Shown here piece after piece: positions 10,187 through 59,798 of a stretch of 64,000 nucleotides of DNA (position 1 is the first letter of the stretch; the number at the start of each line of letters is the position of its first letter). The DNA is from Hormiphora californensis. Lineage: Eukaryota > Animalia > Ctenophora. The notes under the pieces were generated by a model. The model was not told the origin of the DNA and made no database searches. It saw only the letters and a list, made by a program, of their open reading frames with translations. The translations under genes were made by a program, and so were the position numbers. The stretch lies in assembly GCA_020137815.1 (NCBI GenBank), contig CM035360.1, positions 4,960,001 through 5,024,000 of the forward strand, given 5' to 3'.

Positions 10187-13100
10187 ATGATAAAGAAGGA
10201 GTTCGATGCCCTAGAGACGTTCTACCTGGTGTACTTTTGTGTGATATTTGTAGTGGGGATGACACTCAATATCCTCATCACACTGACCTTCATGAGGCAC
10301 AGGAAAATAAGGTATATTGTACCTCACACCTCACACATCACACCTTCGTTCAAATACTCTCTCTGAACAAGTCAACTCACGCCGGTAAGGGTGGCTTCCA
10401 ATATACCTTCTCCAGAGCTACTATGGGGGGAGCAAAGTTACCATCTCTAACTTTGTTGTACAACTCAACATATCTAACTAACATGTGTTTCATTGTTCAG
10501 TAACAACACGTGTATTTCAGGGGCAGTATCAGCAACATGATCTTTATGAGCCTGGTGTTTGTTAACTCCTGTACCATCGTCATCACCATCCCTGTATCCA
10601 TCGTGTCACGGGTAAGAGAGCTCCACAAGGAGAGGGTTAGATTTTGTTGTATCCATCGTGTCACGGGTAAGAGAGCAACGAGAGGGATTGATTTTGTTGC
10701 ATCCATCGTGTCACGGGTAAGCAATTGTGTGCACTGGACCCACTATCGATATTTCAATCAGAATATGTTTCCCAATTCTCTATATGTATTTCTTATCCCA
10801 TACTTGCCTTGTTCGACCCTCTCTCTCTCTCTTCGTCCCGTAAGGGGGAGTCAGAAAATAACAAGTCAATAATAGAACATATGTTTCTCAGTATTAGGAT
10901 TATATCCCCTACATCTTCTCTCTTATCCAGTTGAGAGGTTCATTCCCCTGGCCACTAGATGAAGAGGACCAGAGTACCCTGTGTTCTATATTTGGGGTGG
11001 TGGATAACACAGTGGCAGTTTGCAGTATCTGGACTCTGGGATTGTACGCTATCGATAGGTGGGTTTATCTGATCATAACTAACGGTCCACAATAGTAGCA
11101 TACTCCTGACCCTAGCTTTTTATCAACCCCCAACTCAGATTTCAGAACTCGTATAGCAATCAGAACGACCTTTAATAATATACTTGCTAAACTACTCCAA
11201 ACCTCACCCCCACTATATTTGCAGGTTGATGTATGTGATGTTTCCTCTGAACTACCACAGAAAGATAACCCGTTCCCGGATAGTTGGTGCCCTAATTGCC
11301 ATCTGGCTGTTCTCTGTAGCCCTCTCCCTACCACCCGCAATGGGCTACAATCACTACAGGTACACAGTGTGTAGTTCATGTTCTCGAATCTCGGCATTCT
11401 CGCGAGAAATAGAAATGATGATTGACCCCGATATAATACCGTGCTCGTTACCCCGGTCAATAAGGGTCAGATCGAAGTTGAGTAATGTTATCCTAGAACC
11501 ATGTTGCTGTTAGTGAGAGGATCTTAGTTATGATTAGTGCAAGTGAGATGGGACCCCGATTCTGATTAGTGGAAGGATGCTGGATCTGATTAGTGAGAGG
11601 ATCTGATTAACACGTACTCGGATCACGTGATCTCAGATCTCCCTAACAACAACAGGGTATATCGTGTTCTCAACTCGCACCAGATACGTGACCCGCTTCC
11701 TAACCCGCCATGTGATACGGGGTGCGTTTAGGGCATTCCCTATCTCTGCTTGTTAATCAGATATCTCTTATAAGCAGTCCTACTGTCACATCCAGATATC
11801 ATCAATCACTATCTCTCCTCTCTCTTCACTGCCAACAACTAACAATCTAAGATGAATACTCCTCGGATATCTCCTAACCTAAGAATTCACTCCGCCCGCC
11901 GCCTCAGATCCTCTCCTACCCCCTCCTCACTCCCCCTCTCTCCTGATTCTGCCAGTGGAACTCCTAGCACACATCCTTATCCTACCTGCCTCTCCCTGAC
12001 CTGGTCAGGACTTCCAGCACCTGCTCTACACTCCGGTCCCTAGTGACACCTCTCCAACGTGCTTCCATAGCCATACTCCGCCGGACACGAAGAGGAGATC
12101 AGGAGAATCTGACCGCCAGCCCTTCACCTGATCGTGCTACCTCTCTTGGACCCCTAACTGTCCTGAACGTTTCCCCTGCCTCCAGTAGCAGCCCTAGCCC
12201 CAAGTTTAGGACACCTGTCGCAGCCCGGATGGACAGGAAGCGACCCGCAGCAACCCCTAGCCCTGACACCTCCCGGATATCTGATACAGCACCCCTTGAA
12301 GCCCAGAAGACACCGCTAAGGTCTATGGATAAGAGGAGCAAGAAACGATTGAGACGTCTCTGAGCTACTATGATGTGGATAATTATTTGTTATTTGATAT
12401 TATTTGAAATTAATTAATCTGAAATAACTGAACATGAATTTGATACAAGTAGAACATTTCTCGAACTAACCAAGTATTCTCTCCCAGGTTCAGTATGAAC
12501 TCCTACACATGTGCCATCTCGATCACCTTCCACGACTACATGCTGATATTCTTTGTCGGTGCATTCCCCATCCCCCTAACAACCATCTGTATCAGCTACA
12601 TCCTCATCTACACCATTGCCAGGTACGGAATACACAAATTAAATATCCCAAATTTCATGGGACTGTTAGGAATGTCTTCTTCTTCTCTCGGTGTTGGGTC
12701 AGGGTGGTAGAAAGAGACATTACACTTCACAATTTGTGAAGACATGGCCATTCTGACACAATTAAATTCTCACATAGGGCAAACGATAGACGTGTTGGGC
12801 ACCTTGCAGTTACTCTATACGCAGGGAACCGTTCCCTTATTGACAAGGCGAAATCCAAGTAAGTGCCCAACTCCAACTAGCCCCATTTCCCCCTTCCCTA
12901 GCCCCGTTTCTTTATTTGTGTCCTATTATGCTCCCCGGTTTGATTCTGATCAGATAGCAATCACTGATCCAACCTCTCTCGATTGCAGTATCTCGTACCC
13001 CCTATAACCCCCTTACCTCATTTCCAGTATCAAGTCGACGGCGGTGGTAACAGCTGTCATTTCCATATCCCTGATCTGTATGCTGCCAATCTTTATCATT

Positions 13101-13857
13101 GCCCTCAGTGTGTATATCAACGGTCCTGGTGGAAATTATGAAGGTTAGACTCTCATTTTATATCAACCTAATAATCCTAAGCGATTAGGTGACTGAGATC
13201 AACATGGCTATCATGGTAAAAACAAACAAAACCATACAACAAAACTCTCTCCCCCAACAGGTTTGGACATACCAAATCAGATCGGGGTAGTGCTATTCTT
13301 CCTCAACTGTAATGCTGGCACCCTCATCTTCTGCTCCTGCAACAAGCAACTTAGAACGGTAGGTAGTACCCACTGGGTACAACGTGGGGTTGGGACGATT
13401 TGGGGTTGGGACGATTTGTTTCGGTCAGTAATGTGCAGTCTGTTATATTTTGCGCCCCATCTAGAACACATGTTTTATACTAAGCGACCTATTTGTGAAC
13501 CAGAAAACTTTCATTTCCCCCGTTACACAGGCACTAAGGAACGTGTTGTGTTGTGTTGGTGAGAAACACGCACTGAAGAAACTACACATGAAACAATCTG
13601 AGACACAGTAAGTAGCTGGCAGTACATTGTGTACAGCCTGAGTATACAGTTTAGACGCCGATGCAGTAGCTCCACAGCTATACCTAACAAAATACTCTAT
13701 TATAGGACTGTATTACAGGATTTTAGGACCAACTCAGAATAACACACCTCCCCTTTCTATTTATAGATTGCGAACCAACCGGTCCGAGGTGTCCTACGCC
13801 TCCCCACGCCTCAACTCTCCCCGGTCTGTGGACCGACTACCTGTTACAGCCGTCTAA
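10187..13857 (+). CDS. Class A (rhodopsin-like) GPCR, ~9 exons
   Basis: GT-AG exons at approx. 10187-10311, 10521-10611, 10931-11058, 11225-11359, 12488-12622, 13028-13144, 13261-13358, 13531-13607 and 13767-13857. They translate to seven hydrophobic segments: YFCVIFVVGMTLNILIT, SNMIFMSLVFVNSCTIVITIP, LCSIFGVVDNTVAVCSIWTLGLYAIDRL, IAIWLFSVALSLPP, FFVGAFPIPLTTICISYILIY, SLICMLPIFII and VLFFLNCNAGTLIFCSCNKQLR. The DR(L) motif, TM3 and ECL2 cysteines and a helix-8 Cys-Cys are present. Confidence 0.88.
11852..12363 (+). pseudogene. Emi1/FBXO5-like F-box protein with RL tail. Nested in GPCR intron 4; two +1 frameshifts (pseudogene or consensus errors)
   Basis: Removing one base near 11936 and one near 11973 gives MNTPRISP..SLLILPVELLAHILSYLPLPDLVRTSSTCSTLRSLV (F-box)..DQEN..KFRTPVAA..DKRSKKRLRRL*. 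The tail matches the Emi1 C-terminus SKKNLRRL. Confidence 0.7.
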
Positions 13858-21315: not shown

Positions 21316-24093
<2,778 letters not shown>

Positions 24094-24538
24094 ACCTGGA
24101 AACACACACAAGCTCTGTGTTACTAGCTCCTTATTAGTTAATTAATTAATCAATCAATCAATCAATTAATTAACTCACATCTTATCGAAAATAATGCAAT
24201 GGGGTCTTTGTAAAGGTTTGGTTTACATTAAAAAAGTGTCACAAATCACGAGAACTAGGTACAAAATATCTCTCTTTCCCATGTCGACAAAATATTTTCT
24301 TATAAAAAGTATGCTAACAAATACCACACACAAACGATCACAAAACTTTAATAGCTCTAATATAATATGCGAACTATTAATTGTTTAATATGAGTGATAA
24401 AAATTCCAAAAGTATTTCTCTCAAAATATAGGAAAATCACGTCCCTAGTAATATATCAGCAACTCCGATATGGAGAACAATCAACACTATCGTCGACAAC
24501 TCTCCCTTCCCCTTTAATCCATCTACCTAACGTACTCT

Positions 24539-28748: not shown

Positions 28749-31700
28749 CTAGCCAATGATTCGACTGAGTTTATGCCATTCTCCCCCTCGGTATTTCAAT
28801 GGTCGAGCAGAGCTGGCTGCATCACTTGCATCATCCTCTATCCTAACGTCTGTGGAGTGTCTGTGACAATGTAGGGAAATGTAGTGTTTTGTAAGAAACG
28901 AGATATATCCAAAGGTCTGACCACATCTCGGTATCGGACACACAATTTTAAGTTCTGGACCCCGTTCTCCTCCAACAAATGTACATACAAATGTCTTCTT
29001 TTGTTCGGTGTCTAAGAACCGCCTAACTTTCAGTTGTGGTCTCGATCCGTAGTAGGGCATGTGTCGCTGTGAAAACACGTGCGGCATCTCCAGTTGTGGT
29101 ATTGAGCTGTCTGCCTTTCTTCTACGATCAGGACACAGTCCACAAAAGGAGGTGTACATCCCATACTTATCTCGGATCTTGGAGCACGTGTCCAGGGTAT
29201 GGCCCTCAGAGGGCTTATCTGAGAACACCCGTGGACACGTTGTACACGTGTAAAGGAACTGGAAGTGAAGCATCTGGAAGGCGATGACAACTTTGAAAAC
29301 ATCTTCAACGGCAATCTCATGACTGGTATGGAGATGTTGGTAGAGATTAGTTCGGTACACAAACCCCGTTCTGCAAATCGAACAAACCACCCTCCAGTCC
29401 TTGGAGAAGGGACTCCTCACCGGTATACGGGGGTCTACAAAGTGTTTCAGAGAAATGTGACGTGAGAAACTGATTGGTGAATCCCACAGTGCATTGCAGC
29501 ACCAGTATCTCTCATCACGTGCAAGGTGTTCCAGATACATGTGTTCCAGCATCACAGTGAGGCTGGTATACGACTTTCCACAGATTCTACACAACCCATC
29601 TGTACGGTGCTTCTCGGTCACATGTTCCACTAGTTCCGATTTAGTGGATCTTTGTGCCCTGCACAGGGGACAATCCCAGCGATGATTCCCTTTCACCAGG
29701 AACATACTGGATCGGAAGCAAACGTCTTGGTTCGTTGTCTCCGTGGTGGTAGGTGGTTCCTTCCCATCATCACCACCATCCTTGGTGTCTCTCTCAATGT
29801 TCAGCTCAACAGTATCCCAATCTACTGGTGCAGTTTGTCGAGGAGAGGGAGGAGATTCAGAGATGTCCAGAGCAGAGGTAACAGTAAACTCAACAGGGGT
29901 TTCTTTGGGTTTCTTTTTGGGAGGGCCTTTCTCTTTAGGTGTTGGATCTGGATCAGTAGATGGACAGTCATCTTCCAAATCTATAACAGTGATGCTATTT
30001 TTAGAAGCACAATCGGTATCCCAAGCTACTACTGCACTTGTAATAGGAGGATGGTTCGTTTCTTCAGGTGATTCATCTGGATCATTTGACGGACCAGCAT
30101 CTTCCAAATCCCTGTTTTTAGTGATGCTATTTCGAGGATCGCTATAAGGTAATCCAGTTTTTCTAAGTAGATCGGGATTTGCATTACCCAAGTAAAAATC
30201 ATTTCCAAAATGATCTGAACAGATATATCTCCCAAACACGATATGTTTTAGCGATCGTGATGAAGGAAAACTGCGATATATCCACTCTTTCCATTTGTAA
30301 GTAAACTCATGAAAGAATAACCACTTCCGATGAGTGTGCTTGCTAGTGTCTTTTGAACCAAGTCCACAGATTGAGCAAGATATATTTTCGTCATCGGACG
30401 TTAAAGGAATCCACGATGTCTTCTCCAGTCTCTCTTGCATTGCTTTGTTGAAACCCGGGGCGCTGGGAAAGAGGGTCAAGCTAGGCAACTCTTGTGTTAC
30501 CTCCGATGTCGAGGAATCGCCTATTAGTTCAGCATCAGGTATAGCAGAAGATTTCAGTACCATTTTCCCAGCCTGACTCTTGTGGAATGATTCCAGTCTA
30601 AAATGATCTGAGCAAATCGTTTTTAATACATTATGCTTTAAAAGTGAATTTTTCCAACTGTCTTTAACGTGGTAAAAAGCCAGCCACGGTCTACCAAGTT
30701 TGCTTTTGTCCTTGGAAGCAATACCACAAATAGAGCATTCTTCTTGATGTGTATACTTATAGATGTCTTGTTTATCACTGGAACATGCTTTTACCACTAA
30801 CTTACCATTAACTAACGGCACTGAAAATAAATGTTATTTAAACGTGTATAAACAATAAATGATCACAGCGATCTGAGTGTTATTGGGCAGATGTTTGTTA
30901 CATGCTGTTATTTGAAATGTTGCTCTACAGAAACGGTTCACCTTGGCCTTGCTCAGCCGACCTCTTGAAGGAATGCCATCTTACATCATTACCATACCTG
31001 GAAAGAGAGAGGTGGGATACTGGGATGTTAAGGCCAGAGGGGGGTGTGACGGGGGACATTTAAAAGCAAAAAAGATCTGGGAAATCCTAACCAATCTATG
31101 TCCTTCTTTCTCGCCTTCAGGAATGCAGCCTGTTCATCGTCGGTCAGTTTCCTGATTACAGATCGGTCTGGCCTGTCGTTCGGTTCATCGCTCTCAACTG
31201 ATGACATTTAGCAAAGTAAGAAGACACGATAATTAGAAAATTAGAAAATTTCTATTTGATCAAACAGACTTTAGGCAACCATCGGAAATCCAATTAGTGA
31301 TAGCAATTTGTGAAAAATACCTCGTTCCTTAAAACAGTCAACAGGGTAAGCTGTTTTTGTCAACCGAATCTTGCAATTGGGCTCTACTCTGCCCGGTCGT
31401 ACAAATTGGTCATAAGCAAAGTGATCCGAACAGATATGAATCTTGGATCGCTTGATATTCAAGTTAACTCCACACAGTGTGACCCATTCCTGGCCCCTTG
31501 GTGAATTTTGTCCCGCCGGTAAAGTATAATCTCTATTATAATTTGGAGATGAACGTCGAAGTGGTGGTCGTTCGTTAGGCGGTATCTAAGCGACAGACTG
31601 CTCCTTCATAAAACACTTCATATGACGAAAGCTGTAAAGCTGTTATATTCACACTTTCTGAAGTTCCAGTGGAAGATTCTTAATATTCCGAATGACTTTT

Positions 31701-36120: not shown

Positions 36121-59798
<23,678 letters not shown>

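Follow-up and report, generated by a model that had tools for sequence, protein, structure and literature searches.

The window (the whole 64,000-nucleotide stretch analysed here) carries a rhodopsin-type GPCR gene of about nine exons on the forward strand (10187-13857), and a second gene, encoding a small F-box protein, lies wholly inside one intron of this host, in its 3' half and on the same strand (Table 1). The exons on either side match the Pfam profile 7tm_1 at colinear positions 87-125 and 133-178, the intron between them is of the GT-AG type with an in-frame join, and the remaining host introns measure 117-408 bases; the intronless, same-strand nesting within a GPCR intron described in the initial annotation is thereby borne out. 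A 7tm_1 receptor with GT-AG introns marks the source as an animal, and genome traits suggest a ctenophore. Nesting on the same strand is not rare in itself, since one report counts 2357 nested genes in a ctenophore genome, many of them parallel to their hosts (PMC8527503). At two junctions of the host model, near 10501 and near 12810, the phases are incompatible, which may point to further assembly indels or to missed micro-exons. Elsewhere in the window are eIF3h exons (21399-24141, reverse strand; Pfam JAB and eIF3h_C), an open frame of 694 codons that encodes a THAP domain and C2H2 zinc fingers (28752-30833, reverse strand) and, recognised by eye within 53682-54799, a second GPCR-like frame on the forward strand (54350-54799, no Pfam 7tm match) with adjoining open frames on both strands. 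Two candidates were set aside: a ctenophore spliced-leader motif, whose single match (49631, three mismatches, in a stretch of A/T runs) was unconvincing, and a Cys-rich pattern resembling a zinc-binding region (ZBR) elsewhere in the six frames of the window, which had no supporting context.

Table 1. The nested F-box gene, its motifs and its surroundings in the host intron
Feature	Position	Strand	Basis
Host GPCR exon, TM4	11225..11359	+	7tm_1, E 2e-5
Host intron, 1128 bases, GT-AG	11360..12487	+	holds the nested ORF
Conserved non-coding block	11581..11851	+	few substitutions; CACGTG palindrome 11624, TATAAG 11769, TGATTAG repeats
Intronless ORF, 169 aa after omission of two extra letters	11852..12363	+	run contigs, selection, homologs
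Motif RISPNLR with SP site	11864..11884	+	N-terminal pattern conserved in 30/30
Extra assembly letter, apparent frameshift 1	11930	+	left out in contigs of X1-X6
F-box	11940..12042	+	Pfam PF00646 above cutoff; homologs; three helices in the P0002 model
Extra assembly letter, apparent frameshift 2	11975..11977 (11975 or 11977, depending on allele)	+	absent from X1-X6 contigs
End of post-F-box helix, DQENL, KEN-box-like	12088..12111	+	[DN][KQH]EN in 30/30
D-box-like GPLxxLN without P1 Arg	12142..12168	+	pattern 29/30; Arg at P1 0/30
KFRTPV, conserved aromatic-x-TP	12202..12219	+	[FY]xTP 25/30; RTPL 0/30
KTP site, then basic RL tail with LRRL at the stop	12307..12363	+	LRRL end 17/30; RL end 23/30
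Host GPCR exon, TM5	12488..12622	+	7tm_1, E 0.054, colinear; junction in frame

In the letters as given the ORF is spread over three frames, from the ATG at 11852 to the TGA at 12361-12363. Omission of both extra letters leaves 510 bases encoding 169 aa, with zero internal stops and one Cys, in good agreement with the ~170-aa protein reconstructed earlier; an in-frame stop stands 12 bases 5' of the ATG. Indels had been predicted at ~11932-11940 and ~11970-11976, and both were found close by. Both apparent frameshifts are assembly errors, because the contigs of all six DNA runs (X1-X6) are without the two letters. Both gaps are listed in the contigs of X1, X3, X4, X5 and X6; X2 has the first gap listed, and its second was deduced from a 332-letter contig that spans 334 places with two gaps. 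The six runs come from two studies, and four of them represent one sample, possibly that from which the window itself derives, so that the independent studies number two; run contigs, moreover, omit rare variants. In X4 the listed gap at 11930 accounts for only 66.5 of 94.6 summed depth, and in X6 the gap at 11977 for only 541 of 1720, the rest falling to other overlapping contigs. The homologs described below align with the first frame of the ORF (RISPNLR), which confirms its start and read-through independently of the reads. The nested F-box gene is real and intact. In a seventh run (X7), presumed to be RNA, none of the contigs covered the ORF and all matches in the GPCR exons were diverged, which bears on expression neither way. 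A 96-codon ORF on the reverse strand (12389-12102) was rejected as a shadow of the forward frame.

The ORF is under purifying selection. The X5 contig differs from the window at 39 places, 37 of them listed, and 32 of these fall in the ORF, where they affect 23 codons synonymously and 5 non-synonymously, with 24/32 at third positions (dN/dS 0.08-0.12, p about 5e-8 or lower). Read in the other two forward frames, the changes are synonymous in only 5/29 and 1/28 cases, and stops interrupt the antisense frame with which the ORF has its third positions in common. For the other haplotype of the first sample the count is 13 synonymous against 3 non-synonymous changes from 18 listed differences, a set made up of 17 of the 24 contig differences and one more. 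Coding heterozygosity is very high at 12043-12348, where 24/306 bases distinguish the two haplotypes of one sample, mostly synonymously where listed. Upstream of the ORF, 271 bases show 5 listed substitutions (at most 7), as against 24 per 143 synonymous sites, and tolerate indels, including frame-breaking ones. This block is likely the nested gene's own promoter and 5' UTR, to judge from its pattern of change; E2F, CHR and CCAAT consensus sites were not found upstream of the ORF. The block is bounded by the 5' portion of the intron (11373-11599), which other alleles skip or replace over 208-226 bases.

The F-box, previously called a textbook example, passes the Pfam threshold even on the longest natural piece of the frame (11977-12069), which holds two thirds of the domain and scores 26.1 bits against a cutoff of 20.5 (E 7.5e-6); the profile also matches 10 of 11 aligned family members at E<=1. 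With an F-box and neither a WD40 nor an LRR domain, the protein falls in the FBXO class. Several other readings of the initial annotation stand: the many S/T-P sites amount to 15, KFRTPVAA and the terminus SKKRLRRL are both present in the letters, and there is no Cys cluster, the protein having one Cys, none after QENL and no CxxC. The stretch is one selected reading frame and leaves no room for a ZBR exon. RxxL is likewise absent from the 169 aa, and the first 116 residues contain no Lys. LRRL followed by a stop occurs once among the 6399 stops in the six frames of the window, and the tail pattern has a probability of about 4e-7 from the composition of the protein, for a pattern picked with knowledge of Emi tails. 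The proposal that FRTPV is a D-box finds no support: RTPL occupies that position in 0/30 members, the residue following TP is variable, and PLxxLN is the better candidate. KFRTPV is likely a CDK/Cks site instead, by the Cks consensus. A conserved QEN/KEN motif had been overlooked.

By its sequence, the 169-aa protein belongs to an unnamed, conserved family of zinc-free F-box proteins. Its 29 homologs, from ENA or Logan sources, are 34-48% identical to it. A phmmer search over 1.84 billion representatives returned seven hits, six of them true homologs and the seventh a repeat protein (P0003), a chance match that was dropped before all counts. A profile search covering 7992 candidates of 69-329 aa gave 15 hits, all at E<=7e-30 with none weaker up to E 10, and added 10 homologs; cluster look-ups contributed another 13. 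Single-sequence word searches found no homolog among 184 candidates, nor among 2796 longer ones, and a metagenome scan (two loci, 595 candidate stretches) turned up a YLPLPDLV match within 61 open residues, which was discarded as chance. Family counts below are out of 30, that is, the homologs plus the window's protein, and include many near-duplicates.

The family layout runs from the F-box through a helix to [DN][KQH]EN, an Arg-less PLxxLN, TP sites and a basic tail. The N-terminal pattern [IL][SVF]PxL and an SPDR-type motif occur in 30/30 members and a PLxxxN-type motif in 29/30, whereas the stricter PLx[DE][LVI]N is found in 24/30 and is absent from the window's protein. The KEN-like site reads QENL in 27/30, KENL in 2/30 and HENL in 1/30. 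RxxLxxxxN, CxxC and DSGxxS were each found in 0/30 (DSGxxS also in none of the window's six frames), and at most three Cys follow QENL in any member. In a divergent subset of 10 hand-picked members, 31-69% identical, with truncated and duplicate rows left out, the E-N-L, S-P, T-P and R-L-x-R-L tail elements are matched by 9/9 homologs at most positions; LxRL is terminal in nine of the ten and lies 10 residues before the end in the tenth. Five of these ten have a Lys-free stretch of 45 residues around QEN, while the two members that keep KENL are not Lys-poor, with four Lys around the motif. Since the layout is common to 29 homologs, none with CxxC, the zinc-free form is that of a conserved family and not the outcome of decay, and of the two origins offered in the initial annotation it is the streamlined architecture that is supported.

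Five members are without an RL tail, all of them in one expanded clade of 16, and P0018 and P0030 have 10 further residues after the LRRL motif. Nine distinct members (P0013, 15, 17, 20, 22, 23, 24, 26, 27) each have 354,362 as the length of their longest contig, and three others have 262,926; this likely reflects a tandem expansion in one species in which some copies are without the RL tail. In the structural model of P0002 an F-box of three helices is followed by a long helix that runs as far as QENL (pLDDT about 90), beyond which the chain is disordered and no folded substrate-binding domain is present. A model built from a single sequence is poor (pLDDT 59).

On entry into the cell cycle Emi1 switches off the APC/C, and the ZBR is held to be the reason why Emi1 inhibits the ligase and is not its substrate; DSGxxS is the beta-TrCP degron consensus of its N-terminus, and the human motifs quoted earlier are the D-box FRTPLAS and the tail SKKNLRRL. 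The closest known proteins are Emi1/FBXO5 of vertebrates and Drosophila Rca1, the layout having been compared for Emi1. F-box and C-terminal RL/LRRL tail are shared with Emi1, Emi2 and Rca1, and what is missing is the ZBR before the tail and the canonical RxxL D-box after the F-box. Like Emi1, the nested protein has an F-box followed by degron-like motifs and ends in LRRL, exactly the motif of Emi1 and UBE2S; its C-terminal half is largely disordered, and CDK-type sites are numerous. Unlike Emi1 (447 aa), it has almost no N-terminal region, no linker-ZBR and no DSGxxS, and its KEN-like motif follows the F-box whereas that of Emi1 precedes it. Its last 8 residues are 5/8 identical to the mouse tail of Emi2 (Erp1/FBXO43), up to 7/8 in a homolog, yet LPGSAQ, which precedes them in the 14-residue RL tail, is unmatched (0/6), and Emi2 is far longer and has a ZBR. 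The end also resembles the C-terminal peptide of UBE2S, which is basic, terminates in LRRL and occupies the APC2/APC4 groove, but UBE2S has a UBC domain where the nested protein has an F-box and degron-like motifs. Yeast Acm1 and other zinc-free pseudo-substrate inhibitors are similarly short and disordered with KEN and D-box pseudo-degrons; Acm1 differs in its described ABBA motif and is not known to carry an F-box or LRRL tail.

Statistical searches do not make this connection. None gave a link to Emi1, Emi2 or Rca1, with no Emi1 sequence run as a positive control; PDB sequence searches gave zero matches or other F-boxes only (best E 0.012), Foldseek nothing at E<=0.001 with F-box-Skp1 structures on top, and the Atlas generic F-box clusters only, under 0.9. 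No ZBR-bearing match appeared in the protein-collection searches (69-329 aa, 7992 candidates in the profile search). The case for kinship and function is one of motif order. In published work, Emi1 and Emi2 are ordered as F-box, degron-like motifs and RL tail, with an IBR-like ZBR whose zinc ligands are seven Cys and one His (PMC4141206), and Emi1 inhibits through its D-box, ZBR, LRRL tail and KEN box, the last preceding its F-box region (PMC11579458). The Emi1 tail competes with UBE2S at APC2/APC4 (PMC5717348, PMC6534075, PMC4944252) and suffices by itself to inhibit elongation by UBE2S, the isolated D-box being a weak inhibitor, and the Emi1 C-terminal domain is disordered outside the ZBR (PMC8182066). 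The family motifs fit the consensus [DNE]KEN and, for the D-box, positions P3, P4 and P6-P8, never P1, for which the substitutes described are Lys, His or Gln and not Val, Leu or Thr (PMC5717348). A zinc-free Emi1, or any Emi1 in ctenophores, sponges or placozoans, was not found in a mostly open literature, supplements excluded, and the passages covered in PMC3101788 contain nothing on an invertebrate Emi. Because the ZBR and the canonical D-box are absent, the protein is not classed as Emi1, and on its motifs it likely works like one. Descent from Emi1, with the ZBR lost or with a split before its gain, is a good deal more probable than convergence.

The reading that we prefer, with a probability of roughly 0.6, is that of a minimal Emi1-like inhibitor of the APC/C that would block the degron sites of Cdh1 and the docking of UBE2S. 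A pseudo-substrate that excludes UBE2S and leaves UBE2C priming open is suggested because F-box, KEN-like motif, D-box-like motif and tail are kept while the linker-ZBR is absent. As pseudo-degrons, QEN/KEN and PLxxLN would occupy the KEN site and the D-box site of Cdh1(-Apc10), and the basic LRRL tail would fill the APC2/APC4 groove and shut out UBE2S, the chain-elongating E2. With no linker-ZBR present, priming by UBE2C would continue, so that K11 chain growth and substrate entry would be suppressed without full shutdown of the ligase. The scarcity of lysines and the K-to-Q change in KEN would guard the protein from destruction as a substrate. Its release in mitosis would come from CDK phosphorylation of the conserved TP/SP sites, one of which immediately precedes the tail, and the F-box would bind Skp1. 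An intact, selected ORF and a motif order as in Emi1/Emi2 argue for this inhibitor; the missing ZBR, the defining functional part of Emi1, argues against it, as do the searches that gave no statistical link to Emi1, the lack of a canonical RxxL(xxxx)N and of DSGxxS throughout the family, the prevalence of QEN over KEN, the tail-less members and the extended P0018 and P0030.

Several of the objections favour the chief alternative, itself rather unlikely, in which the protein binds the APC/C by the same tail and motifs as a substrate, decoy or positive modulator. It would then compete with UBE2S or a true inhibitor, or tether an SCF ligase to the APC/C. Loss of a functional ZBR turns Emi1 into an APC/C substrate, and the catalytic module is activated by the C-terminal peptide of UBE2S (PMC8182066); the isolated mouse Emi2 RL peptide releases arrest (PMC12040968). 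These findings also weigh against an inhibitor, as do the two members in which KENL is intact and Lys is not scarce. Yet the paucity of Lys and the QEN of most members suit a pseudo-substrate, and no conventional Emi1 to be antagonised turned up, the genome lying outside the search.

Improbable, too, is an unrelated, lineage-specific SCF adaptor whose basic end is a nuclear localisation signal or nucleic-acid-binding patch that came to resemble Emi by convergence or chance. It would account for the fact that statistical matches outside the family are all generic F-boxes and that the similarity to Emi2, stopping after 8 residues, is so short, itself a point against an inhibitor. A localisation signal, however, requires neither a terminal position nor two fixed leucines, whereas LxRL ends nearly all of the divergent members; KEN-like and D-box-like motifs are conserved alongside the tail, and an adaptor's folded substrate-binding domain is wanting in the P0002 model. 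A pseudogene or decaying retrocopy derived from an ordinary Emi1, the other origin first offered and the one expected had the frameshifts been fixed in reads, would fit the two frameshifts in the window, the lack of introns and the transcript not seen, but is refuted by the absence of the extra letters in 6/6 DNA runs, a dN/dS of about 0.1 and a zinc-free layout that 29 homologs share even where pairwise identity falls to 31%.

If the minimal inhibitor is accepted, a further step may be offered, tentatively and at odds against: in an early-branching animal lineage, likely the ctenophores, a zinc-free Emi1 of 170 aa might be the sole Emi1, a motif-only APC/C brake built on an F-box, with the gene in a tandem array in one species, so that the ZBR would be dispensable and possibly a later addition. 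A selected, zinc-free family that extends across deep divergences provides a natural test of the minimal parts of an APC/C inhibitor, and its conservation marks the residues worth mutating. Should the hosts be ctenophores, the family bears on the form of the first animal Emi1. Two base errors hide the gene in the assembly and profile searches leave the family unnamed, and for a gene thus hidden and unnamed, surveys of presence and absence would score Emi1 as missing.
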